The notes beneath the pieces were generated by a model, which was not told where the DNA came from, made no database searches, and saw nothing but the letters and a program-made list of their open reading frames with translations. The position numbers and the translations under genes are program-made. A DNA stretch of 64,000 nt from Leucoraja ocellata (Eukaryota). The stretch is from the NCBI GenBank assembly GCA_036785375.1, contig JAWMAR010000029.1, forward strand, positions 11,222,001 through 11,286,000, written 5' to 3'. Each line of letters opens with the position of its first letter. Position 1 is the first letter of the stretch. Below are positions 15 through 63,100 of this stretch, piece after piece.

Positions 15-189
15 TTGGAAACAATGTTTCCGGAGCTTGAGGCTGGAATTCCTGACAGCGTCTCCACTTCACAGGCAGTTGGATTGGGGCAGATAAGACC
101 TGGATTTTCTTTACGGAGATTTGCAAGGTTTTCATAATCGCCGTATCCTGTTGGATCATCATGATCAAACCACTGAGTTTTGCAGTTAC
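15..189 (-). CDS. Divergent exon A (175 nt); its exon B lies beyond the window start
   Basis: ccacag|GTAACTGC...GTTTCCAA|gtaaaa; encodes [57 protein letters not shown]. Confidence 0.85.
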
Positions 190-15100: not shown

Positions 15101-18100
15101 CCAGGTAGCATCTCTAGTCGTCCAGTAGAAACATTGCTTCTAGTCTGAAGAAGGATCCTGACACGAAACATCACCTATTAATGATTCGCAGAGATGATGC
15201 CTGACACGATCAGTTACTCCAGCACTTTGTTCCTTATTTTGTAATCCAATATCCGCTGCACTTTGTATTCCTAGTCTTTGCAATTTCTTCTCAAGCGGCT
15301 AAATCACAATTTCTGCTGCCTTTCCCGTGAATCTGTTTTGCATTCCCTCCATGACATGGACACATTTTGTTTCCTTATAAGCTGATAACTACAAGCAAAT
15401 CTCGAGGCTCAGTCGCACTGAAGTGCATATAATCTGTTGTGGCAGTTTTATGACTTGGTTATTATGTAGCGGACATTAAAATATACTGGATAAAGCTTGT
15501 TAAAACTTTTATATTGCTGTTAACATTGCCTTCTTTATAATGGGAGCGATATACTCACCAGGAGGTTCGGTAACACCACCTAAAAGGAGAAACAAACAAA
15601 TCACCTAATTATCATTTGAAATATGTTCAGATTACATAGATACATAGAAAATAGGTGCAGGAGTAGGCCATTCGGCCCTTCGAGCCTGCACCGCCATTCA
15701 ATATGATCATGGCTGATCATCCAACTCAGTATCCCGTACCTGCCTTCTCTCCATACCCCCTGATCCCTTTAGCCACAAGGGCCACATCTAACTCCCTCTT
15801 AAATATAGCCAATGAACTGGCCTCAACTACCTTCTGTGGCAGAGAGTTCCAGAGATTCACCACTCTCTGTGTGAAAAATGTTTTTCTCATCTCGGTCTTA
15901 AAGGATTTCCCCCTTATCCTTAAGCTGTGACTCCTTGTCCTGGACTTCCCCAACATCGGGAACAATCTTCCTGCATCTAGCCTGTCCAACCCCTTAAGAA
16001 TTTTGTAAGTTTCTATAAGATCCCCCCTCAATTTCCTAAAGGAGGGGGGGGGGAGAGAGGAGGGGGGGGATGAGAAAGGAGGGGAGGGGGAGAGAGGAGG
16101 GGGGGAGAGGAGAGGGGGGTGATGGGAGAGGGGGGGGGGTGATGTGGAGAGGGGGGGGTGATGGGGAGAGGGGAGGGGTGATGGGGAGGGGGGAGAGAGA
16201 GGACGGGAGAGAGAGAGAAAGGGAGAGAGAGAAAGAGAGAGGGATAGGGAGAGAGAGGATGGGAGAGAGAGAGAGAGAGGGTGCCTTTTTACTTCAACCC
16301 AAACAACCGTTTGCAGGCAGTGCTTTTTTCCTCAAACTAACCATATTTTCATTTTCAAACCACATTATGGGTACTCACAGCTGTGGAGACATTTGTTCAG
16401 TGTCATTCAGAGCTCTGATTGAGGCACACCACTTGCAGAGACTGATTGAGGCACACTTTGCATCTCCCCTTTTCCTAATCGGCCACCATTTAGATAATAG
16501 TCTGCTTTCCTGTTTTTGACACCAAAGTGGATAACCTCACATTTATCCACATTATACTGCATTTGCCAAACATTTTCCCACTCACCCAGCCTATCCAAGT
16601 CACCTTGCAGTCTCCTAGCATCCTCCTCACAGCTAACACTGCCCCCCAGCTTAGTGTCATCCGCAAACTTGGAGATGTTGCCTTCAATTTCCTCATCCAG
16701 ATCATTAATATATATTGAAAATAGCTGGGGTCCAGCACTGAGCCTTGCAGTACCCCACTAGTCACTGCCTGCCATTGTGAAAAGGACCCGTTTACTCCTA
16801 CTTTTTGCTTCCTGTTTGCCAGCCAGTTCTCTATCCACATCAATACTGAACCCCCAATACCGTGTGCTTTAAGTTTGTATACTAATCTCTTATGTGGGAC
16901 CTTGTCGAAAGACTTAGATTAAATGATGGCAAGCAAAATAAGGGATGAAATTACTATCGGAAAGTCTGGAAATTAGCAAACAGAGGGACAGGAAGAGGGT
17001 GGCTAAGCAAAAAGGTGAGTAGTTATTACAGTCTGTGTAATACTCAGCTCCACTCATAATTCAGTAGCTAATATTCACAAATGATATTTTACAATCACAT
17101 CATACTCACAAAAGGAATCGGGGCAGGTGAATCGTATTCTGTAATCTTGACATGAGCCATCACGTTGGTTGCTGTTCATACAAAAGAATCCAGTAGAAAC
17201 GTTGCAACTGTTGAGTAGAATGTAGGGAGATGTGATAAAATAGTTGATAAAACTAATGATGCTCTTTGAATGAAATGATAAAAGTGCAATATTATGGCCG
17301 GCTCTATTTTGTACCTGGCAATGTTCTCTCCAGTCTGTGAGGCCGGAATCCCTGACGTTGTCTCTACCTCACAGGCGATTGGTTCCGTACAGATCTGATC
17401 GGGATTCTCAGTTCGCAGATGGGGGAACGTTTCATAATCTCCAAATCCTGATGGGTTATCACGGTCAAACCATGGAGTTGTGCAATTCCCTACTGAAGAG
17501 CAGAAAGAGAAAGTAGATTGAAGGTGAACATTGGGTCTGACAGATTGACACAAATGTTGCAGCAAATTAGCTCGGCAGGTCGCATCTCTAGAGGAAAGAA
17601 ATAGGTGACGGTTCATGTCGAGACCCTTCCTCGAACTGAGAGACAGGTGAGAGAGAAATTATAGGTTTGAAAATGTACAGAACAAATCAGAGCCTGCACT
17701 AATGGCCAAAGAGCCCACATGGTTCATTGTTGACTTTGGACGAGGTAATAACAAAATCCATGTCTAGTTTTCCTGGTCCTCCTCGTGACAATCCCACATT
17801 CTGCAATCCTGAATCATGCCTGGCAGAATACTCAAATTACTCTTACGTGGGTCACTTTCCTCAAGTGAACAAGTGATGTCAGAGGACCGGAGAAACGCAG
17901 AAGTTACTCCTTTGTTCAAGAGAGGGGAAAAGATGATCACAGACATTACAGGCCTTTACGATGAATTAACACCACACAAAGTTTTTATGAGTACTCTAGT
18001 TACCTTCTAACAAATAAATCAGAATATCAGAAAAGAAAGTAAGAATTAGGAGCAGGAGTCAGAGATATGACCATTTGAACTAGTAATCGTCCACTTCAGG

Positions 18101-21100
18101 TCCTTTTTCCAGCACTATCAACTTTAACAACCAGAAAACTAACAATCACTTCTGAATGTCTTCGAATGCGCTCTGCAATGAAGAATGACAAAAATACACC
18201 ACCTTCTGAGTGAAACAACTTATCGTATTTTAATCCCAAAATATCTTCCTCTCATGTTGAGACAGTACTGCATGTACCTGGAGTCCAAAGGGACAGAGAT
18301 GACTTTCCATTCTACAATCCCTAGAGAAAATGGTTCTAGTCTGAAGATGGGTCCCGAATCGAAACAGGACCTATTCATGATCCTGGAGATGATGCCTGAT
18401 ACGTTCTGTTATTCCAGCACTTTATTCCTTATTTTGTAATCCAATATCTGCTGTATTTTGTATTCCAAATCTTTGCAATTCTTTCCCATGTGGCTAAATC
18501 ACAATTTCTGCCACCTTCCCCATGAATCTGTTCCGCATTCCCTCCATGACATGGACACATTTTGTTTCCTTAATAAGCTGATAACTACAAGCAACTCTTG
18601 AGGTTCAGTCACACTGAAGTGCCTATAATCTGTTATGCCAGTGTTTTAACTCAGTTATTATGTAGCGGACATTAAAAAATACCGGATGAAGCTCGTAAGA
18701 GCTTTCATATTGCTGTTAACATTGCCCTCTTTATCATGGGAGCGATATACTCACCAGGAGGTTCGGTTAGACCACCTAAAAGGAGAAAGAAACAATTCAG
18801 TTAATCATCATTTGAAACATGTTCAAACTTAATGATTGTCAGCAGATATCTGCCCCTTCTGTGCAAGAGTCTGCACACCACACGTTAGCCTCATCAACCA
18901 CATCAGAACGCAAAGAACCAGAGAAGAGACATGCCACCCTCCATCCAAAGGGACTGCCAAAGAAGGGGGGGGGGTGTTTATGATGGGGATGAATTTACAA
19001 GTTGCCTTCTAACACATCAATCAGAATATCAGAAAAGAAAGAAAGAATTAGGAGTCAGACATGTGGCCATTTGAACTAGCAATCTTCTATTTCAGGTCCA
19101 TTTTCCAGCACTATCAACATATCCTTTAACGTCCAGAAAACTAACAATCACTTCTGAACGTCCTCGAATGCTCTCTGGATTCAAGAATGTCAAAAATACA
19201 CCACCTTCTGAGTGAAACAACTAATCATATTTCAATCCCAAAATATCTTCCTCTCACGCTGAGACAGTGGTGCATGCACCTGGAGTCCAAAGGGACAGAG
19301 ATGACTTTCCATTCTACAATCCCTGGAGAAACATGTTCTAGTCTGAAGAAGGGTCCCAACTCGAAATATCACCTATTCATGATCCCAGAGATGATGCCTG
19401 ACATGATCAGTTACTCCAGCACTTTATTTCTCATTTTGTAATCCAGTATCTACTGTACTTTGTATTACTAATACTTGCAATTTCTTCTCATGTGGCTAAA
19501 TCACAATTTCTGTTGCCTATATCGTCAATCTGTTTTGCATTCCCACCATGGCATGGACACAATTTGTTTCCTTAACAAGATGATAACTACAAGCAACTCT
19601 TGAGGTTCAGTCGCATTGAAGCGCCTATAATCTGTTGTGGCAGTTTTTTAACTTGTTTATTATGTAGCGGACATTTAAACACCCTGGATGAAGTTCATAA
19701 GAGCTTTCATATTGCTGTTAACATTGCCCTCTTTATCATGGGGGCGATATACTCACCAGGAGGTTCGGTAACACCACCTAAAAGGAGAAACAAAACAATT
19801 CAGTTAATTATCATTTGAAAGATGTTGAGATTTAATGATTATCAGCAGATATCTGCCCCATCTGTGCAAAAGTCTGCAGACCACACGTTAGGCTCATCAA
19901 CCACAACAGAACTTGTAGAACCAGAGAAGAGACATGCCACCCTCCATCTAAAGGAACTGTCAAAGAAGGGGTGGTGTTTAAGATGGGGATGAATTTACTA
20001 TTGGAAAGTCTGGAAATCTGCAAACAGAGGGACAGGAAGAGGGTGGCTAAGCAAAAGGTGAGTAGTTATTACAGTCAGTGTAATACTCAGCTCCACTCAT
20101 AATTCAGTAGCTAATAATCACAAATGATATTTCTCAATCGTCTAATACTCACAAAAGAATTCAGGGCAGGTGAATCGTATTCTGTAATCTTGACATGAGC
20201 CATCACGTTGGTTGCTGTTCACACAAAAGAATCCAGTAGAAACGTTGCAACTGTTGAGTAGAATGTAGGGACATATGATAAAGTTGTTGATAAAACTACT
20301 GATGCTCTTTGAATGAAATAAGAAAAGTTCAATATTATGGCCGGCTATATTTTGTACCTGGCAATGTTCTCTCCAGTCTGTGAGGCCGGAATCCCTGACG
20401 TTGTCTCCACCTCACAGGCGATTGGATCCGTGCAGATCTGACCGGGATTCTCAGTTCGCAGATTGGGGAAGATTTCATAATCTCCATTTCCTGATGGGTT
20501 ATCACGGTCAAACCACACAGTTTTGCAATTCCCTACTGAAGAGCAGAAAGAGAAAGTAGATTGAAAGTAAACATTGGGTCTGACAGATTGACACAATATT
20601 ATGGAGCAAATTAGCTCCAGGTAGCATCTCTAGAGGTAAGGAATATGTTACCTTTCATGTCGAGACAGAGAGACCTGATCGATTTGCTAACCGTTGGGCA
20701 CAACTTACATGAACAATATTTCTCCTCAGAACGCATCATATACTCAAGTACATGAGACCTAGTTCCAGCTCCCTCCACCTTGTTCACTGTTCTGCCCATC
20801 ACTTCACTTATTTCTTCTTGCCCCATATTTGCTGATGTTGGTGACTGTTTCCTCTCACTGCTGCCATTGGTCCTGACTCCTTCACATCAATCGCCATCCC
20901 TCTCTCCTCAATAAAATCCCAACTTTATAAATTACCAGCCTGGTACCATGTCCCAGAATTCCTACGAAATCCATGTCTAGTTTTCCTGGTCCTCCTCGTG
21001 ACAATCCCACATTCTGCAATCCTGAATCATGCCTGGCAGAATACTCAAATTACTCTTACGTGAGTCACTTTCCTCAAGTGAACAAGTGATGTCAGAGGAC

Positions 21101-24100
21101 CGGAGAAACGCAGAAGTTACTCCTTTGTTCAAGAGAGGGGAAAAGATGATCACAGAAATGACAGGCCTTTACGATGAATTAACACCACACAAAGTTTTAT
21201 GAGTACTCTAGTTACCTTCTAACAAATAAATCAGAATATCAGAAAAGAAAGTAAGAATTAGGAGCAGGAGTCAGAGACGACTTCCCATTCTACAATCCCT
21301 AGAGAAAATGGTTCAAGTCTGAAGATGGGTCCCGAATCGAAACAGGACCTATTCATGATCTCGGAGATGATGCCTGATACGTTCTGTTATTCCAGCATTT
21401 TGTAATCCATATCTGCTGTAGTTTGTATTCCTAGTCTTTGCAATTTCTTCTCATGTGGCTAAATCACAATTTCTGCCACCTTTCCCATGAATCTGTTTTG
21501 CATTCACTCCATGACATGGACACATTTTGTTTCCTTAATAAGCTGATAACTACAAGCAACTCATGAGGTTCAGTCGCACTGAAGCGCCTATAATCTGTTT
21601 TAACTTAGTTATTATGTAGCGGACTTTAAAACATACTGTATGAAACTAATAAGAGCTTTCATATTACTGTTAACATTGCCCGCTTTATAATGGGATCGAT
21701 ATACTCACCAGGAGGTTCGGTAACACCACCTAAAAGGAGAAACAAACAATTCAGTTAATTATCATTTGAAACATGTTCAGATTTAATGATTGTCAGCAGA
21801 TATCTGCCCCATCTATGCTAGAGTCTGCACACCACACGTTAGCCTCATCAACCTAATCAGAACCAGAGAAGAAACATGCCACACTCCATCCAAAGGGACT
21901 GTCAAAGAAGGAGGGCTGTTTAAGGTGGGGATGAAATTACTATTGGAAAGTCTGTAAATCAGCAAACAGGAGGACAGGAAGAGGGTGGCTAAGCAAAGTG
22001 TGAGTTGTTATTACAGTCTGTGTTATAATCAGCTCCACTCATAATTCAGTAGCTAATATTCACAAATATGTTTTTACAATTGCCTCATACTTACAAAAGG
22101 AATCAGGGCAGGTGAATCGTATTCTGTAATCTTGACATGCGCGATCACGTTGGTTGCTGTTCACACAAAAGAATCCAGTAGAAACGTTGCAACTGTTGAG
22201 TAGAATATAGGGACATATGATAAAGTTGTTGATAAAACCTCTGATGCACTTTAAATGAAATAATAAAAGTGCTATAATATGGCTGGCTCTATATTGTACC
22301 TGGCAATGTTCTCTCCTGTCTGTGAGGCCGGAATCCCTGATGTTGTCTCCACCTCACAGGCGATCGGATCCATGCAGATCTGACCGGGATTCTCAGTTCG
22401 CAGATTGGGGAAGATTTCATAATCTCCATTTCCTGATGGGTTATCACGGTCAAACCACGCAGTTTTGCAATTCCCCACTGAAGAAGAGCAGAAAGAGAAA
22501 GTAGATTCAAAGTGAACATTGGGTCTGATGGATTGACACAACATGTTGCAGCAAATTAGCTCGGCAGGTCGCATCTCTAGAGGAAAGAAATAGGTGATGG
22601 TTCATGTCAGGACCCTTCCTCAAACTGAGAGACAAGTGAGAGAGAAATTAGAGGTTTGAAAATGTACAGAACAAATCAGAGCCTGCACTAATGGTCAAAG
22701 AGCCCACATGGTTCATTGTTGACTTTGGAGGAGGTAATAACGAGGGGATACAGACAGTAAAACTAGTAGGATGATTGCAGCAGGTGAGGGATGGAGAGAG
22801 AGGGAATGCAAGGGTTACTCCTTTGTTCAAGAGAGGGGCAAAGATGATCACAAAAATGACAGGCCTTTACGATGAATTAACACCACACATGAAGTTGTGT
22901 ACAGTAGTTGCCCTCTAACACATCAATCAGAATATCAGAAAAGAAAGTAAGAATTAGGAGCAGGAGTCAGACATGTGGCCATTTGAACTAGCAATCTTCT
23001 ATTTCAGGTCCATTTTCCAGCACTATCAACATATCCTTTAACGTCCAGAAAACTAACAATCACTTCTGAACGTCCTCGAATGCTCTCTGGAATGAAGAAT
23101 GTCAAAAATACACCACCTTCTGAGTGACACAACTAATCGTATTTCAATCCCAAAATATCTTCCTCTCATGCTGAGACAGTGGTGCATGCACCTGGAGTCC
23201 AAAGGGACAGAGATGTCTTTCCATTCTACAATTCCTGGAGAAACATGTTCTAGTCTGAAGAATGGTCCCGACTCGAAATATCACCTATTCATGATCCCAG
23301 AGATGATGCCTGACATGATCAGTTACTCCAGCACTTTATTTCTTATTTTGTAATCCAGTATCTACTGTATTTTGTATTACTAATCCTTGCAATTTCTTCT
23401 CATGTGGCTAAATCACAATTTCTGTTACCTATCCCGTCAATCTGTTTTGCATTCCCTCCATGGCATGGACACATTTTGTTTCCTTAACAAGATGATAACT
23501 ACAAGCAACTCTTGAGGTTCAGTCGCATTGAAGCGCCTATAATCTGTTGTGGCAGTTTTTTAACTTGTTTATTATGTAGCGGACATTTAAACACCCTGGA
23601 TGATGTTCATAAGAGCTTTCATATTACTGTTAACATTGCCCTCTTTATCATGGGAGCGATATACTCACCAGGAGGTTCGGTAACACCACCTAAAAGGAGA
23701 AACAAAACAATTCAGTTAATTATCATTTGAAACATGTTGAGATTTAATGATTATCAGCAGATATCTGCCCCATCTGTGCAAAAGTCTGCAGACCACACGT
23801 TAGCCTCATCAACCACAACAGAACTAGTAGAACCAGAGAAGAGACATGCCACCCTACATCTAAAGGAACTGTCAAAGAAGGAGGAGTGTTTAAGATGGGG
23901 ATGAATTTACTATTGGAAAGTCAGCAAACAGAGGGACAGGAAGAGGGTGGCTAAGCAAAAGGTGAGTAGTTATTACAGTCTGTGTAATAATCAGCTCCAT
24001 TCATAATTCAGTAGCTAATATTCACAAATTATATTTTACAATTGCCTCATACTCACAAAAGGAATCGGGGCAGGTGAATCGTATTCTGTAATCTTGACAT

Positions 24101-27100
24101 GAGCCATCACGTTGGTTGCTGTTCATACAAAAGAATCCAGTAGAAACGTTGCAACTGTTGAGTAGAATGTAGGGACATATGATAAAGTAGTTGATAAAAC
24201 TACTGATGCTCTTTGAATGAAATAATAAAAGTGCAATATTATGGCCGGCTCTATTTAGTACCTGGCAATGTTCTCTCCAGTCTGTGAGGCCGGAATCCCT
24301 GACGTTGTCTCTACCTCACAGGCGATTGGTTCCGTGCAGATCTGACCAGGATTCTCATTTCGCAGATGGGGGAACGTTTCATAATCTCCAAATCCTGATG
24401 GGTTATCACGGTCAAACCATGGAGTTGTGCAATTCCCTACTGAAGAGCAGAAAGAGAAAGTAGATTGAAGGTGAACATTGGGTCTGACAGATTGACACAA
24501 AATTATGGAGCAAATTAGCTCCAGGTAGCACCTTTGTAGGTAAGGAATAGGGGACCTTTCATGTTGAGATCCGTCTTCAGACAGAGAGTCTGGGGACTGA
24601 GAAATTTTATGGTATGGAAAGGTTCAGAACAATTCAGAACCTGCACTAATGGTCAAAGAGCCCACATGGTTCATTGTTGGCTTTGGAGGAGGTGATAAGG
24701 AAGGGATACAAAAAGCAAAACTTGCAGGATGTATGGGGCAAGTGAGGGATGGAGAGAGAGAGAATGCAAGGGTTACTTGAATTTAAAATAATCAATATTC
24801 ATAATGCTGGGTTGTAAGCTAGGCAAGCAAAATATGAGGTTCTTTTCAATTTACATGTGGCCGAACTCTGACATTGGAGGTGATCCAGGACAGAACGAGT
24901 CTGTCTCCACTGTCAGAGTGCTTTTCTGTCCTGCACCACCTCCACTGTCAGAGTAAGGCCTTATGCAAATTGGAGTAACAGCACCTCATATTTTGTTTGG
25001 GTAGCTTACAACCCAATATTGGAACATTAATTTCTCTAATTTCATGTAATCTTTGCCTTCCAACTCTCTCCATCTCTTCTCCACCTTAGTCGTCCGATAA
25101 GGTTTATTATTGTGGGCTCTTTGGCCATCGGTGCCAGCTCTGCTTTGTTCTGTATGTTTTCATACCACTAGTTTCCCTCTCCCCTGACTCTCAGACTGAA
25201 GACTGGTCTCCTCATTACAATCTATTCCTTTTCTCCAGAGATGCTGACTGACCCGCTGAGTAGCTCTAGCATTTTGAGACTATCATCGGAGTAATCAAGC
25301 ATCTGCTGGTGCTTTGTACACATTTGGTCTTATAGACCTGATAGATTTGCTAAACTTGTCAGGCACAACTTACATGAACAATATTTCTCATCAGAACGCA
25401 TCATATACTCAAGTACATGAGACCTGGTTCCAGCTCCCTCCACCTTGTTCACTGTTCTGCCCATCACTTCACTTTTGTCTTCTTGCCCCATATTTGCTGA
25501 TGTTGGTGACTGTTTCCTCTCACTGCTGCCATTGGTCCTCACTCCTTCACATCAATCGCCATCCCTCTCTCCTCAATAAAATCCCAACTTTATAAATTAC
25601 CAGACTGGTACCATGTCCCAGAATTCCTACAAAATCCATGTCTAGTTTTCCTGGTCCTCCTCGTGACAATCCCACATTCTGCAATCCTGAATCATGCCTG
25701 GCAGAATACTCAAATTACTCTTACATGAGTCACTTTCCTCAAGTGAACAAGTGATGTCAGAGGACCGGAGAAACGCAGAAGTTACTCCTTTGTTCAAGAG
25801 AGGGGAAAAGATGATCACAGAAATGACAGGCCTTTACGATGAATTAACACCACACATAAAGTTTTTATGAGTACTCTAGTTACCTTCTAAGAAATAAAAC
25901 AGAATATCAGAAAAGAAAGTTAGAATTAGGAGCAGGAGTTAGAGACGACTTCCCATTCTACAATCCCAAGAGAAAAAGGTTCTAGTCTGAAGATGGATCC
26001 CGAATCGAAACAGGACCTATTCATGATCTCGGAGATGATGCCTGATACGTTCTGTTATTCCAGCATTTTGTAATCCATATCTGCTGTAGTTTGTATTCCT
26101 AGTCTTTGCAATTTCTTCTCATGTGGCTAAATCACAATTTCTGCAACCTTTCCCATGAATCTGTTTTGCATTCACTCCATGGCATGGACACTTTTGTTTC
26201 CTTAATAAGCTGATAACTACAAGCAACTCTTGAGGTTCACTCGCACTGAAGCGCCTATAATCTGTTATGCCAGTGTTTTAACTCAGTTATTATGTAGCGG
26301 ACATTAAAAAATACTGGATGAAGCTCGTAAGAGCTTTCATATTGCTGTTAACATTGCCCTCTTTATAATGGGATCGATATACTCACCAGGAGGTTCTGTT
26401 ACACCACCTAAAAGGAGAAACAAACAATTCAGTTAATTATCATTTGAAACATGTTCTGATTTAAAGATTGTCAGCAAATATCTGCCCCATCTGTGCAAGA
26501 GTCTGCAGGAGTAGGAGTCAGACATGTGGCCATTTGAACTAGCAATCTTCTATTTCAGGTCCATATTCCAGCACTATCTACAAATCCTTTAACGTCCAGA
26601 AAACTAACAATCACTTCTGAATGTCCTCGAATGCTCTCTGGAATCAAGAATGTCAAAAATACACCACCTTCTGAGTGAAACAACTTATCATATTTCAATC
26701 CCAAAATATCTTCCTCTCATGCTGAGACAGTGGTGCATGCACCTGGAGTCCAAAGGGACAGAGATGTCTTTCCATTCTACAATCCCTGGAGAAACATGTT
26801 CTAGTCTGAAGAATGGTCCCGACTCGAAATATCACCTATTCATGATCCCAGAGATGATGCCTATAATCTGCTGTGGCAGTTTATTAACTTGTTTATTATG
26901 TAGCGGACATTTAAACACCCTGGATGAAGTTCATAAGAGCTTTCATATTACTGTTAACATTGCCCTCTTTATCATGGGAGCGATATACTCACCAGGAGGT
27001 TCGGTAACACCACCTAAAAGGAGAAACAAAACAATTCAGTTAATTATCATTTGAAACATGTTGAGATTTAATGATTATCAGCAGATATCTGCCCCATCTG

Positions 27101-30100
27101 TGCAAAAGTCTGCAGACCACACGTTAGCCTCATCAACCACAAAGAACTAGTAGAACCAGAGAAGAGACATGCCACCCTCCATCTAAAGGAACTGTCAAAG
27201 AAGGAGGAGTGTTTAAGATGGGGATGAATTTACTATTGGAAAGTCAGCAAACAGAGGGACAGGAAGAGGGTGGCTAAGCAAAAGGTGAGTAGTTATTACA
27301 GTCTGTGTAATAATCAGCTCCATTCATAATTCAGTAGCTAAGAAATAGGTGACGGTTCATATTGAGACCCTTCCTCAAACTGAGAGACCGGTGAGAGAGA
27401 AATTAGAGTAATAACGAGGGGATACAAACAGTAAAACTAGTAGGATGATTGCAGCAGGTGAGGGATGGAGAGAGAGGGAATGCAAGGGTTACTCCTTTGT
27501 TCAAGAGAGGGGCAAAGATGATCACAAAAATGACAGGCCTTTACGATGAATTAACACCACACATGAAATGGGTACTGTACACAAAAAACCTGAATATCAG
27601 AAAAGAAAGTAAGAATTAGGAACAGGAGTCAGACATATGGCCATTTGAACTAGCAATCTTCTATTTCAGGTTCATTTTCCAGCACAATCTACATATCCTT
27701 TAACGTCCAGAAAACTACCAATCACTTCTGAATGTCCTCGAATGCTCTCTGGAATGAAGAATGATAAAAATACACCACCTTCTGAATGAAACAACTTATC
27801 GTATTTCAATCCCAAAATATCTTCCTCACATGCTGAGACAGTGGTGCATGCACCTGGAGTCCAAAGGGACAGAGAATTCTTTCCATTCTACAATCATTAG
27901 AGAAAAAGTTTCTAGTCTGATGATGGGTCCCGACTCGAAACATCACCTATTCATGATCCCAGAGATGATGCCTGACATGATCAGTTACTCCAGCACTTTA
28001 TTTCTTATTTTGAAATCCAGTATCTGCTGTACTTTGTATTCCTAGTCCTTGCAATTTCTTGCAGATAATCTGTTGTGGCAGTTTTTTAACTTGTTTATTA
28101 TGTAGCGGACATTAAAACATACTGGATGAAGTTCATAAGATATACTCACCAGGAGGTCCGGTTACACCACCTAAAAGGAGAAACAAACAATTCAGTTAAT
28201 TATCGTTTGAAACATGTTCAGATTTAAAGATTGTCAGCAAATATCTGCTCCATCTGTGCAAGAGTATGCACACCACACGTTGACCTCATCAACCACATCA
28301 GAACTCATAGAACCAGAGAAGAGACATGCCACCCTCCATCCAAAGGGACTGTCAAAGAAGGAGGTCTGTTTAAGGTGGGGATGAAATTACTATTGGAAAG
28401 TCTGGAAATCAGCAAACAGAGGGACAGGAAGAGGGTGGCTAAGCAAAAGGTGAGTAGTTATTGCAGTCAGTGTAATACTCAGCTCCACTCATAATTCAGT
28501 AGCTAATATTCACAAATGATATTTTACAATCGCCTCATACTCACAAAAGGAATCAGGGCAGGTGAATCGTATTCTGTAATCTTGACATGCGCGATCAGGT
28601 TGGTTGCTGTTCACACAAAAGAATCCAGTAGAAACGTTGCAACTGTTGAGTAGAATGTAGGGACATATGATAAAGTTGTTGATAAAACTACTGATGCACT
28701 TTGAATTAAATAATAAAACTGCTATAATATGGCTGGCTCTATTTTGTACCTGGCAATGTTCTCTGCAGTCTGTGAGGCCGGAATCCCTGACGTTGTCTCC
28801 ACCTCACAGGCGATTGGATCCGTGCAGATCTGACCGGGATTCTCAGTTCGCAGATTGGGAAAGATTTCATAATCTCCATTTCCTGATGGGTTATCACGGT
28901 CAAACCACGCAGTTTTGCAATTCCCTACTGAAGAAGAGCAGAAAGAGAAAGTAGATTGAAAGTAAACATTGGGTCTGACAGATTGCCACAAAATTATGTA
29001 GCAAATTAGCTCCATGTAACATCTCTAGAGGTAAGGAATAGGTTACCTTTCATGTCAAGACAGAGAGACCTGATCGATTTGCTAACCGTTGGGCACAACT
29101 TACATGAACAATATTTCTCCTCAGAACGCATCATATACTCAAGTACATGAGACCTGGTTCCAGCTCCCTCCACCTTGTTCACTGTTCTGCCCATCACTTC
29201 ACTTATTTCTTCTTGCCCCATATTTGCTGATGTTGGTGACTGTTTCCTCTCACTGCTGCCATTGGTCCTGACCCCTTCACATCAATCGCCATCCCTCTCT
29301 CCTCAATAAAATCCCAACTTTATAAATTACCAGCCTGGTACCATGTCCCAGAATTCCTACGAAATCCATGTCTAGTTTTCCTGGTCCTCCTCGTGACAAT
29401 CCCACATTCTGCAATCCTGAATCATGCCTGGCAGAATACTCAAATTACTCTTACGTGAGTCACTTTCCTCAAGTGAACAAGTGATGTCAGAGGACCGGAG
29501 AAACGCAGAAGTTACTCCTTTGTTCAAGAGAAGGGAAAAGATGATCACAGAAATGACAGGCCTTTACGATCTTTTAATTTTGCACAGTGTGTGTCTGGTC
29601 CCACACACGAACAGGGACATACATTGGACCTTGTATTATCTTATGGTTTGCCTGTGTTAAACTTGGAGGTCTGTGACAGTGTGTTTTCTGATCACATGCC
29701 GGTAATATTTGATGTTGGTTTCTCCAGTGCTGCAGTTAGACCTGTTGCGTCTGCTCGGCGCTGTCGGACCATTAACCCCTGTACTGCTGGCCAGTTCTCT
29801 GCCGCCTTCAATCAGCTCTGTGCCCCCTCTGCGTCCATTTCCATCGGTACGGAGGAGATTAGTTCTTGGTTCCACTCTTCCTGTAGAACTATTCTCGACT
29901 CTGTGGCCCCATTAAAAACTTTGCAGCCCAGAGCTGAACCCGAGCCCTGGGTCTGTGACGCAACTCGTACAGCTCGACGGGAGTGTCGCAGAGCTGAGCG
30001 AATGTGGAAGAAGGACAGGCTAGAGGTTTCATCGCAAATCCTAAAGGACAGCTGGCGAAACTACCAAAATACTGTTAAAGAGGCAAAAAGATATTATCTC

Positions 30101-48100: not shown

Positions 48101-51100
48101 AGGAGTCAGACATGTGGCCATTTGAACTAGCAATCTTCTATTTCAGGTCCATTTTCCAGCACTATCAACATATCCTTTAACGTCCAGAAAACTAACAATC
48201 ACTTCTGAATGCTCGAATGCTCTCTGGAATCAAGAATATCAAAAATACACCACCTTCTGAGTGAAACAACTAATCGTATTTCAATCCCAAAATATCTTCC
48301 TCTCATGTTGAGACAGTGGTGCATGCACCTGGAGTCCAAAGGGACAGAGATGACTTTCCATTCTACAATCCCTGGAGAAACATGTTCTAGTCTGAAGAAT
48401 GGTTCCGACTCGAAATATCACCTATTCATGATCCCAGAGATGATGCCTGACATGATCAGTTACTCCAGCACTTTATTTCTCATTTTGTAATCCAGTATCT
48501 ACTGTACTTTGTATTACTAATACTTGCAATTTCTTCTCATGTGGCTAAATCACAATTTCTGTTACCTATCCCGTCAATCTGTTTTGCATTCCCTCCATGG
48601 CATGGACATATTTTGTTTCCTTAACAAGATGATAACTACAAGCAACTCTTGAGGTTCAGTCGCACTGAAGCGCCTATAATCTGTTGTGGCAGTTTTTTAA
48701 CTTGTTTATCATGCCTGGCAGAATACTCAAATTACTCTTACGTGAGTCACTTTCCTCAAGTGAACAAGTGATGTCAGAGGACCGGAGAAACGCAGAGGTT
48801 ACTCCTTTGTTCAAGAGAGGGGAAAAGATGATCACAGAAATGACAGGCCTTTACGATGAATTAACACCACACATGAAGTTTTTATGAGTAGTTACCTTCT
48901 AACAAATAAATTAGAATATCAGAAAAGAAAGTTAGAATTAGGATCAGGAGTCAGAGATATGACCATTTGAACTACTAATCGTCCAGTTCAGGTCCTTTTT
49001 CCAGCACTATCAACTTTAACAACCAGAAAACTAACAATCACTTCTGAATGTCTTCGAATGTGCTCTGCAATGAAGAATGACAAAAATACACCATCTTCTG
49101 AGTGAAACAACTTATCGTATTTTAATCCCAAAATATCTTCCTCTCACGTTGAGACAGTACTGCATGTACCTGGAGTTCAAAGGGACGGAGATGACTTTCC
49201 ATTCTACAATCCCTAGAGAAAATGGTTCTAGTCTGAAGATGGGTCCCGAATCCAAACAGGACCTATTCATGATCCCGGAGATGATGCCTGATACGTTCTG
49301 TTATTCCAGCACTTTATTTCTTATTTTGTAATCCAATATCTGCTGTAGTTTGTATTCCAAATCTTTGCAATTCTTTCCCATGTGGCTAAACCACAATTTC
49401 TGCCAACTTCCCATGAATCTGTTTTACATTCCCTCCATGACATGGACACATTTTGTTTCCTTAATAAGCTGATAATCACAAGCAACTCTTGAGGTTCAGT
49501 CACACTGAAGCGCCTATAATCTGTTATGCCAGTGTTTTAACTCAGTTATTATGTGGCGGACATTAAAAAATACTGGATGAAGCTCGTAAGAGCTTTCATA
49601 TTGCTGTTAACATTGCCCTCTTTATCATGAGAGTGATGTACTCACCAGGAGGTTCAGTTACACCACCTAAAAGGAGAAACAAACAATTCAGTTAATCATC
49701 ATTTGAAACATGTTCAGACTTAATGATTGTCAGCAGATATCTGCCCCTTCTGTGCAAGATTCTGCACACCACACGTTAGCCTCATCAACAACAACAGAAC
49801 GCAATGAACCAGAGAAGAGACATGCCACCCTCCATCCAAAAGGACTGCCAAAGAAGGGGGGGGGTGTTTAAGATGGGGATGAATTTACTAGTTGCCTTCT
49901 AACACATCAATCAGAATATCAGAAAAGAAAGTAAGGATTAGGAGCAGGAGTCAGACATATGGCCATTTGAACTAGCAATCTTCTATTTCATGTCCATATT
50001 CCAGCACTATCAACATATCCTTTAACGTCCAGAAAACTAACAATCACTTCTGAACGTCCTCGAATGCTCTCTGGATTCAAGAATGTCAAAAATACACCAC
50101 CTTCTGAGTGAAACAACTAATCATATTTCAATCCCAAAATATCTTCCTCTCATGCCGAGACAGTGGTGCATGCACCTGGAGTCCAAAGGGACAGAGATGA
50201 CTTTCCATTCTACAATCCCTGGAGAAACATGTTCTAGTCTGAAGAATGGTTCCGACTCGAAATATCACCTATTCATGATCCCAGAGATGATGCCTGACAT
50301 GATCAGTTACTCCAGCACTTTATTTCTTATTTTGTAATCCAGTATCTACTGTACTTTGTATTACTAATACTTGCAATTTCTTCTCATGTGGCTAAATCAC
50401 AATTTCTGTTACCTATCCCGTCAATCTGTTTTGCATTCCCTCCATGGCATGGACATATTTTGTTTCCTTAACAAGATGATAACTACAAGCAACTCTTGAG
50501 GTTCAGTCGCATTGAAGCGCCTATAATCTGTTGTGGCAGTTTTTTAACTTGTTTATTATACAGCGGACATTTAAACACACTGTATGAAGTTCATAAGAGC
50601 TTTCATATTACTGTTAACATTGCCCTCTTTATCATGGGAGCAATATACTCACTAGGAGGTTCGGTAACACCACCTACAAGGAGAAACAAAACAATTCAGT
50701 TAATTATCATTTGAAACATGTTGAGATTTAATGATTATCAGCAGATATCTGCCCCATCTGTGTAAAAGTCTGCAGACCACACGCTAGCCTCATCAGCCAC
50801 AACAGAACTAGTAGAACCAGAGAAGAGACATGCCACCCTCCATCTAAAGGAACTGTCAAAGAAGGAGGAGTGTTTAAGATGGGGATGAATTTACTATTGG
50901 AAAGTCAGCAAACAGACGGACAGGAAGAGGGTGGCTAAGCAAAAGGTGAGTAGTTATTACAGTCTGTGTAATACTCAGCTCCATTCATAATTCAGTAGCT
51001 AATATTCACAAATGATATTTTACAATCGCCTAATACTCACAAAAGGAATCGGGGCAGGTGAATCGTATTCTGTAATCTTGACATGAGCCATCACGTTGCT

Positions 51101-54100: not shown

Positions 54101-57100
54101 AACGTTGCAACTGTTGAGTAGAATGTAGGGACATATGATAAAGTTGTTGATAAAACCTCTGATGCACTTTAAATGAAATAATAAAAGTGCTATAATATGG
54201 CTGGCTCTATTTTGTACCTGGCAATGTTCTCTCCAGTCTGTGAGGCCGGAATCCCTGATGTTGTCTCCACCTCACAGGCGGTCGGATCCATGCAGATCTG
54301 ACCGGGATTCTCAGTTCGCAGATTGGGGAAGATTTCATAATCTCCATTTCCTGATGGGTTATCACGGTCAAACCACGCAGTTTTGCATTTCCCCACTGAA
54401 GAAGAGCAGAAAGAGAAAGTAGATTCAAAGTGAACATTGGGTCTGATGGATTGACACAACTTGTTGCAGCAAATTAGCTCGGCAGGTCGCATCTCTAGAG
54501 GAAAGAAATAGGTGACGGTTCATGTCGAGACCCTTCCTCAAACTGAGAGACCGGTGAGAGAGAAATTAGAGGTTTGAAAATGTACAGAACAAATCAGAGC
54601 CTGCACTAATGGCCAAAGAGCCCACATGGTTCATTGGTGACTTTTTCAGGAGGTAATAACGAGGGGATACAAACAGTAAAACTAGTAGGATGATTGCAGC
54701 AGGTGAGGGATGGAGAGAGAGGGAATGCAAGGGTTACTCCTTTGTTCAAGAGAGGGGCAAAGATAATCACAAAAATGACAGGCCTTTACGATGAATTAAC
54801 ACCACACATGAAATGGGTACTGTGGTTGCCTTCTAACACATAAATCAGAATATCAGAAAAGAAAGTAAGAATTAGGAGCAGGAGTCAGACATGTGGCCAT
54901 TTGAACTAGCAATCTTCTATTTCAGGTCCATTTTCCAGCACTATCGACATATCCTTTAACGTCCAGAAAACTAACAATCACTTCTGAATGTCCTCGAATG
55001 CTCTCTGGAATCAAGAATATCAAAAATACACCACCTTCTGAGTGAAACAACTAATCGTATTTCAATCCCAAAATATCTTCCTCTCATGTTGAGACAGTGG
55101 TGCATGCACCTGGAGTCCAAAGGGACAGAGATGACTTTCCATTCTACAATCCCTGGAGAAACATATTCTAGTCTGAAGAAGGGTCCCAACTCGAAATATC
55201 ACCTATTCATGATCACAGAGATGATGCCCGACATGATCAGTTACTCCAACACTTTATTTCTCATTTTGTAATCCAGTATCTACTGTATTTTGTATTACTA
55301 ATACTTGCAATTTCTTCTCATGTGGCTAAATCACAATTTCTGTTACCTATCCCGTCAATCTGTTTTGCATTCCCTCCATGGCATGGACACATTTTGTTTC
55401 CTTAACAAGATGATAACTACAAGCAACTCTTGAGGCTCAGTCGCATTGAAGAGCCTATAATCTGTTGTGGCAGTTTTTTAACTTGTTTATTATGTAGCGG
55501 ACATTTAAACACCCTGGATGAAGTTCATAAGAGCTTTCATATTACTGTTAACATTGCCCTCTTTATCATGGGAGCGATATACTCACCAGGAGGTTCGGTA
55601 ACACCACCTAAAAGGAGAAACAAAACAATTCAGTTAATTATCATTTGAAACGTGTTGAGATTTAATGATTATCAGCAGATATCTGCCCCATCTGTGCAAA
55701 AGTCTGCAGACCACACGTTGGCCTCATCAACCACAACAGAACTAGTGGAACCAGAGAAGAGACATGCCACCCTCCATCTAAATGAACTGTCAAAGAAGGA
55801 GGAGTGTTTAAGATGGGGATGAATTTACTATTGGAAAGTCAGCAAACAGAGGGACAGGAAGAGGGTGGCTAAGCAAAAGGAGAGTAGTTATTACAGTCTG
55901 TGTAATAATCAGCTCCATTCATAATTCAGTAGCTAAGAAATAGGTGACGGTTGATGTTGAGACCCTTCCTCAAACTGAGAGACCGGTGAGAGAGAAATTA
56001 GAGGTTTGAAAATGTACAGAACAAATCAGAGCCTGCACTAATGGTCAAAGAGCCCACATGGTTCATTGTTGACTTTGGAGGAGGTAATAACGAGGGGATA
56101 CAAACAGTAAAACTAGTAGGATGATTGCAGCAGGTGAGGGATGGAGAGAGAGGGAATTCAAGGGTTACTCCTTTGTTCAAGAGAGGGGCAAAGATGATCA
56201 CAAAAATGACAGGCCTTTACGATGAATTAACACCACACATGAAATGGGTAGTGTAGTTGCCTTCTAACACATAAATCTGAATATTAGATAAGAAAGTAAG
56301 AATTAGGAGCAGGAGTCAGACATATGGGCATTTGAACTAGCAATCTTCTATTTCAGGTTCATTTTCCAGCACAATCTACATATCCTTTAACGTCCAGAAA
56401 ACTACCAATCACTTCTGAATGTCCTCGAATGCTCTCTGGAATGAAGAATGACAAAAATACACCACCTTCTGAATGAAACAACTTATCGTATTTTAATCCC
56501 AAAATATCTTCCTCACATGCTGAGACAGTGGTGCATGTACCTGGAGTCCAAAGGGACAGAGATGACTTTCCATTCTACAATCATTAGAGAAAAAGTCTGA
56601 AGATGGGTCCCGACTCGAAACATCACCTATTCATGATCCCAGAGATGATGCCTGACATGATCAGTTACTCCAGCACTTTATTTCTTATTTTGAAATCCAG
56701 TATCTGCTGTACTTTGTATTCCTAGTGCTTGCAATTTCTTGCAGGTAATCTGTTGTGGCAGTTTTTTAACTTGTTTATTATGTAGTGGACATTAAAACAT
56801 ACTGGATGAAACTCATATGAGCTTTCATATTACTGTAAACATTGCCCGCTTTATAATGGGATCGATATACTCACCAGGAGGTCCGGTTACACCACCTAAA
56901 AGGAGAAACAAACAATTCAGTTAATTATCGTTTGAAACATGTTCAGATTTAGATTGTCAGCAGATATCTGCCCCATCTATGCTAGAGTCTGCACACCACA
57001 CGTTAGCCTCATCAACCACATCAGAACTCAAAGAACCAGAGAAGAAACATGCCACACTCCATCCGAAGGGACTGTCAAAGAAAGAGGAGTGTTTAAGATG

Positions 57101-60100
57101 GGGATCAATTTACTATTGGAAAGTCTGGAAATCAGCAAACAGGGGGACAGGAAGAGGGTGGCTAAGCAAAGTGTGAGTTGTTATTATAGTCTGTGTTATA
57201 ATCAGCTCCACTCATAATTCAGTAGCTAATATTCACAAATATGTTTTTACAATTGCCTCATACTTACAAAAGGAATCAGGGCAGGTGAATCGTATTCTGT
57301 AATCTTGACATGAGCGATCACGTTGGTTGGTGTTCACACAAAAGAATCCAGTAGAAACGTTGCAACTGTTGAGTAGAATGTAGGGGCATATGATAAAGTT
57401 GTTGATAAAACCTCTGATGCACTTTAAATGAAATAATAAAAGTGCTATAATATGGCTGGCTCTATTTTGTACCTGGCAATGTTCTCTCCAGTCTGTGAGG
57501 CCGGAATCCCTGACGTTGTCTCCACCTCACAGGCGATTGGATCCGTGCAGATCTGACCGGGATTCTCAGTTCGCAGATTGGGGAAGATTTCATAATCTCC
57601 ATTTCCTGATGGGTTATCACGGTCAAACCACGCAGTTTTGCAATTCCCCACTGAAGAAGAGCAGAAAGAGAAAGTAGATTCAAAGTGAACATTGGGTCTG
57701 ATGGATTGACTCAACATGTTGCAGCAAATTAGCTCGGCAGGTCGCATCTCTAGAGGGAAGAAATAGGTGACGGTTCATGTCGAGACCCTTCCTCAAACTG
57801 AGAGACCGGTGAGAGAGAAATTAGAGGTTTGAAAATGTACAGAACAAATCAGAGCCTGCACTAATGGCCAAAGAGCCCACATGGTTCATTGTTGACTTTG
57901 GAGGAGGTAATAACGAGGGGATACAAACAGTAAAACTAGTAGGATGATTGCAGCAGGTGAGGGATGGAAAGAGAGGGAATGCAAGAGTTATTCCTTTGTT
58001 GAAGAGAGGGGCAAAGATGATCACAAAAATGACAGGCCTTTACGATGAATTAACACCACACATGAAGTTGGGTACTGTAGTTGCCTTCTAACACATAAAT
58101 CTGAATATCAGAAAAGAAAGTAAGAATTAGGAACAGGAGTCAGACATATGGCCATTTGAACTAGCAATCTTCTATTTCAGGTCCATTTTCCAGCACAATC
58201 TACATATCCTTTAACGTCCAGAAAACTACCAATCACTTCTGAAAGTCCTCGAATGCTCGCTGGAGTGAAGAATGACAAAAATACACCACCTTCTGAATGA
58301 AACAACTTATCGTATTTCAATTCCAAAATATCTTCCTCTTATGTTGAGACAGTGGTGCATGCACCTGCAGTCCAAAGGGACAGAGATGACTTTCCATTCT
58401 ACAATCATTAGAGAAAAAGTTTCTAGTCTGAAGATGGGTCCCGACTCAAAACACCACCTATTCATGATCGCAGAGATGATGCCTGACATGATCAGTTACT
58501 CCAGCACTTCATTTCTTATTTTGAAATCCAGTACCTGCTGTACTTTGTATTACTAATCCTTGCCATTTCTTCTCATGTGGCTAAATCACAATTTCTGTTA
58601 TCTATCCCGTGAATCTGTTTTACATTCCCTCCATGGCATGGACACATTTTATTTCTCTAACAAAATGATAACTACAAGCAACTCTCGACGTTCAGTCGCA
58701 CTGAAGCACAGATAACCAGTTATGCCAGTGTTTTAACTTAGTTATTATGTACCGGACATTAAAACATACTGTATGAAACTCATAAGAGCTTTCATATTAC
58801 TGTTAACATTGCCCTCTTTATAATGGGATCGATATACTCACCGGGAGGTTCGGTAGCACCACCTAAAAGGAGAAACAAACAATTCAGTTAATTATCATTT
58901 GAAACATGTTCAGATTTAAAGATTGTCAGCAAATATCTGCCCCATCTGTGCAAGAGTCTGCACACCACAAGTTGGCCTCATCAACCACAACAGAACTCAT
59001 AGAACCAGAGAAGAGACATGCCACCCTCCATCCAAAGGGACTGTCAAAGAAGGAGGGCTGTTTAAGATGGGGATGAATTTACTATTGGAAGTCATCATAT
59101 TGGAACTAAAAATGTACAGAACAAATCAGAGCCTGCACTAATGGCCAAAGAGCCCACATGGTTCATTGTTGACTTTGGAGGAGGTAATAACGAGGGGATA
59201 CAAACAGTAAAACTAGTAGGATGATTGCAGCAGGTGAGGGATGGAGAGAGAGGGAATGCAAGGGTTACTCCTTTGTTCAAGAGAGGGGCAAAGATGATCA
59301 CAAAAATGACAGGCCTTTACGATGAATTAACACCACACATGAAGTTGGGTACTGTAGTTGCCTTCTAACACATCAATCAGAATATCAGAAAAGAAAGAAA
59401 GAATTAGGAGCAGGAGTCAGACATGTGGCCATTTGAACTAGCAATCTTCTATTTCAGGTCCATATTCCAGCACTATCAACATATCTTTTAACGTCCAGAA
59501 AACTAACAATCACTTCTGAATGTCCTCGAATGCTCTCTGGAATCAAGAATGTCAAAAATACACCACCTTCTGAGTGAAACAACTAATCGTATTTCAATCC
59601 CAAAATATCTTCCTCTCATGCTGAGACAGTGGTGCATGCACCTGAAGTCAAAGGGACAGAGATGTCTTTCCATTCTACAATCCCTGGAGAAACATGTTCT
59701 AGTCTGAAGAAAGGTCCCGACTCGAAATATCACCTATTCATGATCCCAGAGATGATGCCTGACATGATCAGTTACTCCAGCACTTTATTTCTTATTTTGT
59801 AATCCAGTATCAAATCACAATTTCTGTTACCTATCCCGTCAATCTGTTTTGCATTCCCTCCATGGCATGAACACATTTTGTTTCCTTAAGAAGATGATAA
59901 CTACAAGCAACTCTTGAAGTTCAGTCGCATAGAAGCGCCTATAATCTGTTGTGGCAGTTTTTTAACTTGTTTATTATGTAGTGGACATTTAAACGCACCG
60001 GATGAAGTTCATAAGAGCTTTCATATTACTGTTAACATTGCCCTCTTTATAATGGGATCGATATACTCACCAGGAGGTTCGGTAACACCACCTAAAAGGA

Positions 60101-63100
60101 GAAACAAACAATTCAGTTAATTATCGTTTGAAACATCTTCAGATTTAAAGATTGTCAGCAAATATCTGCCCCATCTGTGCAAGAGTCTTCACACCACACG
60201 TTGGCCTCATCAACCACATCAGAACTCATAGAACCAGAGAAGAGACATGCCACCCTCCATCCAAAGGGACTGTCAAAGAAGGAGGGCTGTTTAAGGTGGG
60301 GATGAAATTACTATTGGAAAGTCTGGAAATCAGCAAACTGAGGGACATGAAGAGGGCGGCTAAGCAAAAGGTGAGTAGTTATTACAGTCTGTGTAATACA
60401 CAGCTTCACTCATAATTCAGGAGCTAATATTCACAAATGATATTTTACAATCGCCTAATACTCACAAAAGAAATCAGGGCAGGTGAATCGTATTCTGTAA
60501 TCTTGACATGAGCCATCACGTTGGTTGATGTTCACACAAAAGAATCCAGTAGAAACGTTGCAACTGTTGAGTAGAATGTAGGGAGGTGTGATAAAGTAGT
60601 TGATAAAACTACTGATGCTCTTTGAACGAAATAATAAAAGTGCTATAATATGGCCGGCTCTATATTGTACCTGGCAATGTTCTCTCCAGTCTGTGAGGCC
60701 GGAATCCCTGACGTTGTCTCCACCTCACAGGCGATTGGATCCGTGCAGATCTGACCGGGATTCTCAGTTCGCAGATCGGTGATCGTTTCATAATCTCCAT
60801 TTCCTGATGGGTTATCACGGTCAAACCACGCAGTTTTGCAATTCCCCACTGAAGAGCAGAAAGAGAAAGTAGATTGAAAGTGAACATTGGGTCTGATGGA
60901 TTGACACAAAATTATGGAGCAAATTAATTCCAGGTAGCATCTCTAGAGGTAAGGAATATGTTACCTTTCATGTCGAGACAGAGAGACCTGATCGATTTGC
61001 TAACTGTTGGGCACAACTTACATGAACAATATTTCTCATCAGAACGCATCATATACTCAAGTACATGAGACCGAGTTCCAGCTCCCTCCACCTTGTTCAC
61101 TGTTCTGCCCATCACTTCACTTATTTCTTCTTGCCCCATATTTGCTGATGTTGGTGACTGTTTCCTCTCACTGCTGCCATTGGTCCTGACTCCTTCACAT
61201 CAATCGCCATCCCTCTCTCCTCAATAAAATCCCAACTTTATAAATTACCAGCCTGGTACCATGTCCCAGAATTCCTACGAAATCCATGTCTAGTTTTCCT
61301 GGTCCTCCTCGTGACAATCCCACATTCTGCAATCCTGAATCATGCCTGGCAGAATACTCAAATTACTCTTACGTCAGTCACTTTCCTCAAGTGAACAAGT
61401 GATGTCAGAGGACCGGAGAAACGCAGAAGTTACTCCTTTGTTCAAGAGAGGAGAAAAGATGATCACAGAAATGACAGGCCTTTACGATGAATTAACACCA
61501 CACAAAGTTTTTATGAGTACTCTAGTTACCTTCTAACAAATAAAACAGAATATCAGAAAAGAAAGTAAGAATTAGGAGCAGGAGTCAGAGACGACTTCCC
61601 ATTCTACAATCCCTAGAGAAAAAGGTTCTAGTCTGAAGATGGGTCCCGAATCGAAACAGGACCTATTCATGATCTCGGAGATGATGCCTGATACGTTCTG
61701 TTATTCCAGCATTTTGTAATCCATATCTGCTGTAGTTTGTATTCCTAGTCTTTGCAATTTCTTCTCATGTGGCAAAATCACAATTTCTGCCACCTTTCCC
61801 ATGAATCTGTTTTGCATTCACTCCATGACATGGACACATTTTGTTTCCTTAATAAGCTGATAACTACAAGCAACTCTTGAGGTTCAGTCGCACTGAAGCG
61901 CCTATAATCTGTTTTAACTTAGTTATTATGTAGCGGACTTTAAAACATACTGTATGAAACTAATAAGAGCTTTCATATTACTGTTAACATTGCCCGCTTT
62001 ATAATGGGATCGATATACTCACCAGGAGGTTCGGTAACACCACCTAAAAGGAGAAACAAACAATTCAGTTAATTATCATTTGAAACATGTTCAGATTTAA
62101 TGATTGTCAGCAGATATCTGCCCCATCTATGCTAAAGTCTGCACACCACACGTTAGCCTCATCAACCTCATCAGAACCAGAGAAGAAACATGCCACACTC
62201 CATCCAAAGGGACTGTCAAAGAAAAAGGAGTGTTTAAGATGGGGATGAATTTACTATTGGAAAGTCTGGAAATCAGCAAACAGGGGGACAGGAAGAGGGT
62301 GGCTAAGCAAAGTGTGAGTTGTTATTACAGTCTGTGTTATAATCAGCTCCACTCATAATTCAGTAGCTAATATTCACAAATATGTTTTTACAATTGCCTC
62401 ATACTTACAAAAGGAATCAGGGCAGGTGAATCGTATTCTGTAATCTTGACATGCGCGATCACGTTGGTTGCTGTTCACACAAAAGAATCCAGTAGAAACA
62501 TTGCAACTGTTGAGTAGAATATAGGGACATATGATAAAGTTGTTGATAAAACCTCTGATGCACTTTAAATGAAATAATAAAAGTGCTATAATATGGCTGG
62601 TTCTATTTTGTACCTGGCAATGTTCTCTCCAGTCTGTGAGGCCGGAATCCCTGACGTTGTCTCCACCTCACAGGCGATTGGATCCGTGCAGATCTGACCG
62701 GGATTCTCAGTTCGCAGATTGGGGAAGATTTCATAATCTCCATTTCCTGATGGGTTATCACGGTCAAACCACGCAGTTTTGCAATTCCCTACTGAAGAGC
62801 AGAAAGAGAAAGTAGATTGAATGTAAACATTGGGTCTGACAGATTGACACAAAATTATGGAGCAAATTAGCTCCAGGTAGCATCTCTCGAGGTAAGGAAT
62901 ATGTTACCTTTCATGTCAAGACAGAGAGACCTGATCGATTTGCTAACCGTTGGGCACAACTTACATGAACAATATTTCTCCTCAGAACGCATCATATACT
63001 CAAGTACATGAGACCGAGTTCCAGCTCCCACCACCTTGTTCACTGTTCTGCCCATCACTTCACTTATTTCTTCTTGCCCCATATTTGCTGATGTTGGTGA

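Follow-up and report, generated by a model that had tools for sequence, protein, structure and literature searches.

Domain deletions multiply a 21-nucleotide linker microexon in a skate relative of the fish CysD-only cupula mucins

Here, we examine a tandem-domain gene of the skate Leucoraja ocellata and the tiny exons that link its domains. The whole stretch of DNA that was analysed, hereafter the window, covers 64,000 nucleotides (nt) (GenBank assembly GCA_036785375.1, contig JAWMAR010000029.1, positions 11,222,001 to 11,286,000), and all positions below are counted from its first letter. On its minus strand, from 15 to 63999, lie 24 of the 47 CysD/WxxW domains of the gene, which extends past both window ends, from a start-codon exon at about position 116463 to a stop at -22384; whole-gene counts take in 200 kb of flanking DNA. 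The upstream start exon and a hydrophobic exon, which would encode the signal peptide, were recognised by their likeness to skate and sawfish N-termini, and the last domain ends in a stop as it does in relatives. A single locus of this kind was found in the genome among 53 scored candidates. Elsewhere (C252, C801, C11 and C399) there are other WxxW arrays, with unsplit domains, and two open frames of more than 5000 amino acids that resemble mucin central exons.

Each domain is encoded by two exons, A and B, and in the young part of the array domains are linked by a 21-nt microexon, M. The repeat unit taken as reference spans 1960 bp (21709..23668, minus strand) and consists of an intron, A (22477-22300), an intron of 107 nt, B (22192-22095), a further intron and the microexon (21729-21709); joins of this type are present in RNA-type contigs of related organisms. 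Exon A (178 nt) runs from phase 1 to phase 2, B (98 nt) from 2 to 1 and M from 1 to 1. The array is 90-97% self-similar over kilobases and contains multi-kilobase higher-order repeats. The window holds 24 A, 23 B and 30 M exons, and its 23 B-to-A intervals contain a single M in 15 cases, two in four, three in two and none in two. Over the whole gene, 47 domains come with 54 M, of which 17 are extras standing behind the first copy of their interval, and the 46 intervals divide into 24 single, 9 double, 4 triple and 9 empty ones. A strict scan found no microexon in any of the nine intervals of an older 3' part, which begins in the window (15..4433, minus strand) and in which B is joined directly to A, as in skate gene models; the last microexon of the young array (DVTEPP) lies at 6378..6398 (minus strand). 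Young A and B exons are free of stops and of lost Cys in 34 of 34 cases. RNA contigs join B, M and A directly.

Pfam PF13330 (Mucin2_WxxW) is matched above cut-off by both A and B exons, and exon A is 93-100% identical to gene models of Leucoraja erinacea and 75% identical to catshark si:dkey-205h13.2. On these matches, the closest relatives of the skate gene belong to the family of si:dkey-205h13.2, the CysD-only cupula mucin of fish. The predicted fold of a sawfish relative (P0007) matches the CysD domains of MUC5B, MUC2 and MUC5AC (best E 6e-5), and a sequence search of solved structures gives a weak match to MUC5B (E 0.075). According to the available text of PMC11765562, members of the si:dkey-205h13.2 family consist of a signal peptide and CysD domains only, the zebrafish gene is expressed in neuromast support cells, and its mutants have shorter cupulae; the zebrafish protein sets cupula length and startle latency. 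By analogy, the skate product is likely a protein of lateral-line mucus or of the cupula gel.

A preliminary description of this DNA had reported eight extra microexons in six intervals, all keeping AG, GT and a length of 21 nt; our recount bears this out, with 30 M for 24 domains and eight extras spread over six intervals, and all 14 positions that it named are on the minus strand, 21 nt long, preceded by AG and followed by GTGAGT. Chance is excluded as their source, given 0-3 mismatches per 21 nt and matching flanks. In the direction of transcription, the clusters are a pair at 60071..60091 and 58842..58862, the latter an extra reading GATEPP; a pair at 56875..56895 (GVTGPP) and 55587..55607 (extra); a triple at 50653..50673, 49646..49666 and 47376..47396, the middle and last copies being extras; a pair at 43434..43454 and 42139..42159 (extra); a triple at 28150..28170 (GVTGPP, with about 45 nt deleted starting 11 nt behind its donor), 26993..27013 and 26387..26407, again with two extras; and a pair at 19757..19777 and 18755..18775, the latter an extra reading GLTEPP. 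The variants listed earlier are thus all present, including the copy at 50653, which ends in A and would give Ser if another M came next. The claim that spacing changes in steps of seven residues, with any combination in frame, also holds. Introns of 585-2249 nt separate the clustered copies in the window.

The origin of the extras can be read from their flanks. In the young array, 15 of 15 extras stand behind one of four junctions, which delete 530, about 710, 964 or 1127 nt and each of which spans an A and a B exon. The 530-nt deletion is present in ten copies in the gene, four of them in the window (55935..55936, 47724..47725, 42487..42488 and 27340..27341, the last being the most diverged copy); the 964-nt deletion has two copies, both in the window (49889..49890 and 18998..19000); the 1127-nt deletion has one (26506..26507); and the deletion of about 710 nt, which carries a filler of about 18 nt and was split by global alignment, has one copy at 59090..59109 and a second outside the window (all on the minus strand). 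The clean junctions show 1-2 nt of microhomology. Divergence among the ten copies of the 530-nt junction is 0.6-3%, except for one copy at 8-10%. Hence, the eight extras of the window stem from four in-frame deletion events, later recopied within higher-order repeats, and the recopying likely took place by unequal crossing-over. Duplication of microexons alone is ruled out, since each young extra carries a deletion junction. One interval still contains a remnant of B without acceptor. Outside the window there are two older extras whose global alignment is too poor for them to be classed, and the test of deletion placement given below does not include them. The 530-nt junction was also recovered as a joint, at a depth of 124, in one DNA run (X15), which is possibly the assembly's own sample; it is absent among the joints listed for runs X17 and X20, the latter with thin cover, and its absence from contigs proves nothing. 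A further joint in run X17, at 21757-22115, would cut exon B, and its depth of 11.5 versus about 1000 makes it either noise or a rare broken unit.

What remains after such a deletion is constrained by a split codon. The last base is T in each of the 48 B exons or remnants, and each of the 54 M begins with GT, so that the join encodes the last Cys of the domain. If B were joined straight to a young A, Leu would result in 37 of 37 cases, and at least one M is retained at all 37 young junctions. The absence of M is not harmless, because the last Cys codon would be lost; read from the codons, one microexon per young junction is obligatory for completing it. In the old 3' part, exon A begins three bases later, with GC or GT, and itself supplies the Cys; skate gene models of this part read F-C-N-C. 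The first and last Cys of the domain covary, which suggests that they pair: over 211 domains from 15 proteins, 196 have both, 12 neither, three only the last and none only the first, with the reservation that 11 of the 12 cases of neither are one shared terminal domain, which leaves few independent events. A side feature of the young A exons is that 12 of 38 (for example the one at 5027) start with TAGG and offer another AG, three bases further on; were B joined directly to that site, the codon would read Trp, or stop in the exon at 5027, and never Cys.

Are the extras spliced in? We lean, with reservations, towards spacers that are fixed in the genome and place 7, 14 or 21 residues between neighbouring CysD domains, every copy being included. 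The steps would be as follows. In-frame deletions of the A and B of a domain leave its linker microexon behind, and the unit is later recopied. Selection would remove deletions that break the frame or that take the only M, yet tolerate the loss of A and B together. All M copies of a cluster would then be spliced in, and the longer Pro/Thr spacers would loosen the chain of domains and add O-glycan sites in a protein that would act in the cupula as it does in zebrafish. On selection, random placement of 11 deletion sizes gives P=0.0012 for zero disruptive events and P=0.028 for all four exon-removing deletions taking A and B and none taking M only, in a test with sizes hand-picked from the array and assumed flanks of 40 nt at the acceptor and 6 nt at the donor. 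The extras have the commonest acceptor and GTGAGT in 15 of 15 cases, as ordinary copies do. Splice-site decay was found in none of the 17 extras of the gene, and when all variants are counted the splice sites of the extras appear conserved (3/46 versus 50/175, P=0.002). Gene models from two further batoids back the tandem use that the preliminary description had supposed. In the predicted fold of sawfish P0007 (mean predicted local distance difference test score, pLDDT, of 63), the domains are ordered and the linkers at 118-126 and 218-239 are unstructured and of low confidence.

Several observations weigh against full inclusion. Contigs of four RNA-type sets (organisms A-D) show A-B and M-A joins and list no M-M join; none of these organisms is known to be L. 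ocellata or to have extras, and if extras are present in them, the pattern points to skipping. In run X10, a 327-nt contig reads A-B-M-A with a single M, and 161-nt contigs in X1, X5 and X7, judged by their length, pass M unbranched. Over singletons, the conservation of splice sites is not significant (2/46 versus 20/175, P=0.27), the statistics rest on four founders, and the coding letters of the extras vary as much as the intron (6/21). The tandem units of relatives come from predicted gene models, for which RNA support was not seen. Some properties of the RNA-type data bear on how these absences are read. Contigs drop variants: X1 shows one form of B versus 18 forms among the 34 copies in this genome. 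No run recorded as RNA was listed with this stretch; that the runs used are RNA is guessed, but in their contigs exons are connected without the introns between them. In one raw RNA run (X23, about 5% read), four reads matched at 95% or more and two reads crossed the A-B join, which is too few for M-M joins.

Variable inclusion is the alternative that we take most seriously. The copies of a cluster would be skipped at random or variably, through noise or regulation, yielding a mixture of one to three units and never zero. Microexons are often weakly included, leaving out the extras would harm neither the frame nor the Cys, the M-M join is missing from the four RNA contig sets, and shark models list isoforms that differ by whole domains of 91 residues, so that this type of locus may splice flexibly. 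On the other hand, no B-A join that skips M is listed in the four sets, which indicates efficient inclusion of lone M copies, and the extras do not differ from these in splice sites or adjacent flanks; moreover, the models of other batoids include every copy. We hold such a mixture possible, but tentatively so. It is improbable that no interval ever contributes more than one copy and that the extras are silent debris of young deletions. The missing M-M join would fit this too, and the copies are young enough to have kept intact sites without selection, as the test on singletons allows; against it stand the lack of any silencing sequence difference in the extras, the absence of decay in 17 of 17, and the presence, in models of sawfish, devil ray and stingray, of tandem units that have diverged.

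Mutually exclusive splicing, which the preliminary description had entertained, would pick among GVTEPP, GLTEPP, GATEPP and GVTGPP linkers, and tandem homologous exons with small sequence differences are indeed what it would require. The steric mechanism sets a limit on the length of the intron between two such exons, and mutual exclusion is enforced by a very short intron, by a frame penalty or by RNA pairing. None of these devices is present here: the introns between window copies, at up to 2249 nt and never below 585 nt, far exceed the steric limit, the frame is kept upon double inclusion, and the longest inverted match in the six cluster intervals is 12-14 nt, not above shuffles. The same variants also occur at positions with a single M. 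Mutually exclusive exons are defined, in the available text of PMC9741552, as never occurring together in one transcript; both copies are present in the gene models of relatives, and the RNA contigs, from organisms not known to be this species, do not show them together. We consider this choice among linkers highly improbable. That the extras are assembly errors is barely conceivable: self-similarity of 90-97% over kilobases may have left order and copy number imperfect, but the extras show four distinct junctions and private differences among copies, the 530-nt junction is found in a DNA run, and doubles occur in the model of another skate.

The microexon itself appears to have an ancestor in the same gene. 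Exon 3, also of 21 nt (115419-115399), stands behind the start exon and the signal-peptide exon, and the introns on either side of it can be aligned in register with the M introns: against three of four M copies the scores are 165-197, with maxima of 76-84 for shuffles, and against the fourth 94.5 versus 80; blastn gives E 1.7e-12. Exon 3 is therefore likely the ancestor of all linker microexons, and the alignment of the flanks implies that the young array descends from a first-domain module that included it.

Comparison among cartilaginous fishes rests on gene models, and the exon structure of rays was deduced from protein. Shark models (12 species) have linkers of one residue, rarely three, and never Pro/Thr, while batoid models (seven species) have inserts of seven or eight residues. 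In Amblyraja radiata, 4 of 18 linkers are double; the model of Pristis pectinata, a sawfish, has one triple, whose units have diverged and are joined through a Gly in each case; that of Mobula (P0054) has six triples of eight-residue units; and that of Hypanus (P0125) has runs of 9 and 16 such units. The units of P0125 start with Gly or Ser in 26 of 26 cases, as an N+GT codon would give, these being repeat units and so not independent, and its runs end in E-Y-I, the read-through signature seen in skate models at the M donor. By these models, the same tiny exon appears to have been expanded, in related rays, to a long tract resembling a mucin. In the skate examined here there is no long Pro/Thr/Ser tract, with at most three units in which three of seven residues are Pro or Thr; the long tract belongs to the Hypanus model, where it also shows as a Thr/Ser tract in eight-residue register. 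Devil-ray models P0054 and P0044, which lie on contigs of equal length, resemble two ends of one gene. The shark isoform models (P0001, P0017-P0022; P0002, P0024; P0006, P0041) differ by multiples of 91 residues, through either domain skipping or a mapping artefact. Linkers were inspected in 27 of about 110 newly found proteins, some of which the pattern mis-parsed; among the 24 inspected proteins of bony fishes and tetrapods, linkers are short save in two lizard WxxW proteins (P0078 and P0082), whose domains are separated by long Pro/Thr linkers that were perhaps gained separately.

We regard the following series as reasonably probable: a 21-nt post-signal exon was duplicated with the first domain, captured the last Cys codon of the preceding domain, turned Pro/Thr-rich and was multiplied (none in sharks, one to three in skates and sawfish, 9-16 in the stingray). 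The earlier idea of a nascent Pro/Thr spacer built one exon at a time survives in part: the stingray models agree with building from exons, while the extras arose by deleting domain exons. That, in addition, regulated splicing of spare copies tunes the spacing of cross-links, and hence the stiffness of the lateral-line cupula gel, within one animal is rather doubtful. The interest of the locus lies in the gain of a mucin-type spacer by a secreted protein made of domains only, with breakpoints that can still be read. The route would be that a split Cys codon first made a microexon indispensable and that this microexon was then multiplied, since deletions that remove exons are tolerated only when a whole domain goes and its linker stays. 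Its stages stand side by side across batoids, which makes the origin of a Pro/Thr/Ser (PTS) region directly testable. If all copies are simply included, the extras amount to tolerated structural drift of modest functional weight.

The introns also hold mobile elements. A long interspersed nuclear element (LINE)-type element with an open frame of 802 amino acids (Pfam RVT_1) lies at 29477-31885 on the plus strand, and an insertion of equal size occupies the corresponding place in the unit that ends at 73643, beyond the window, so the element was probably copied with the array. A broken reverse-transcriptase element with a weak RVT_1 match, which by its motifs we take to be Penelope-like, occupies 8012-9917 (plus strand), and a G/A-rich simple repeat with a reverse-transcriptase fragment (RVT_1) lies at 16038-16918, between exon B at 17110 and the microexon at 15579. 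A 138-nt element at 12108-12241, 25111-25244 and 52094-52227 is 76% like part of the long intron of the unit, inverted, and is probably a dispersed repeat.

Among known systems, the closest is the fish CysD-only 'Mucin-5AC' (si:dkey-205h13.2), with which the skate gene shares a signal peptide followed by tandem CysD/WxxW domains, apparently without other parts. The available text of PMC11765562 gives 27 domains for the family member of A. radiata (XP_032903886, our model P0037); the L. ocellata gene differs from the description found there in its 47 domains and its batoid-type microexon linkers of variable number. The CysD fold and the Pro/Thr spacers between CysD domains are shared with MUC2, MUC5AC and MUC5B as far as PMC3195396 was available, in which CysD dimers are non-covalent and proposed as cross-links that set pore size; by analogy, spacer length may affect the gel mesh. 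Unlike those mucins, the skate domain has 8 rather than 10 Cys and is split over two exons, and its spacer is made of microexons instead of one large exon. No VWD domains were found in the skate gene, in a scan of its introns that did not extend to all conceivable exons, and the full models of relatives contain CysD only.

A literature search found no paper on microexons in this gene, and only two in which the gene is named, most subscription papers being outside its reach. As in the PTS domain of chicken Muc13, described in the portion of PMC1552070 at hand, a Pro/Thr repeat unit corresponds to one near-identical exon. Its authors proposed that PTS length is controlled by splicing, and the skate gene offers a test case for the proposal that exon-per-repeat PTS domains vary in this way. 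Chicken Muc13 is, however, a membrane mucin with one long PTS block, whereas the skate gene has one to three units between folded domains, made by the deletion of domain exons and with one copy obligatory for the Cys codon. The lineage-specific gain of Pro/Thr/Ser repeats by a secreted protein recalls mucinization (PMC9417175), with the difference that in the skate each repeat unit is a microexon in its entirety and goes back to the exon that adjoins the signal peptide; the main text of PMC9417175, as available, lacks the terms 'microexon', 'multiple exons' and 'exon duplication'. Short, repetitive and homogenised exons also encode the Pro-rich spacer of variable length of titin PEVK, an unrelated protein for which alternative splicing is established in the accessible text of PMC6469411, while the skate case is known here from genome sequence. 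The gene family, the exon-per-repeat PTS of chicken Muc13, mucinization by PTS gain and the spliced spacer of titin PEVK are thus already known. What is new is a linker microexon that comes from a post-signal exon, is locked by a split Cys codon, is multiplied by domain deletion and has apparently been expanded to a mucin tract in stingrays.

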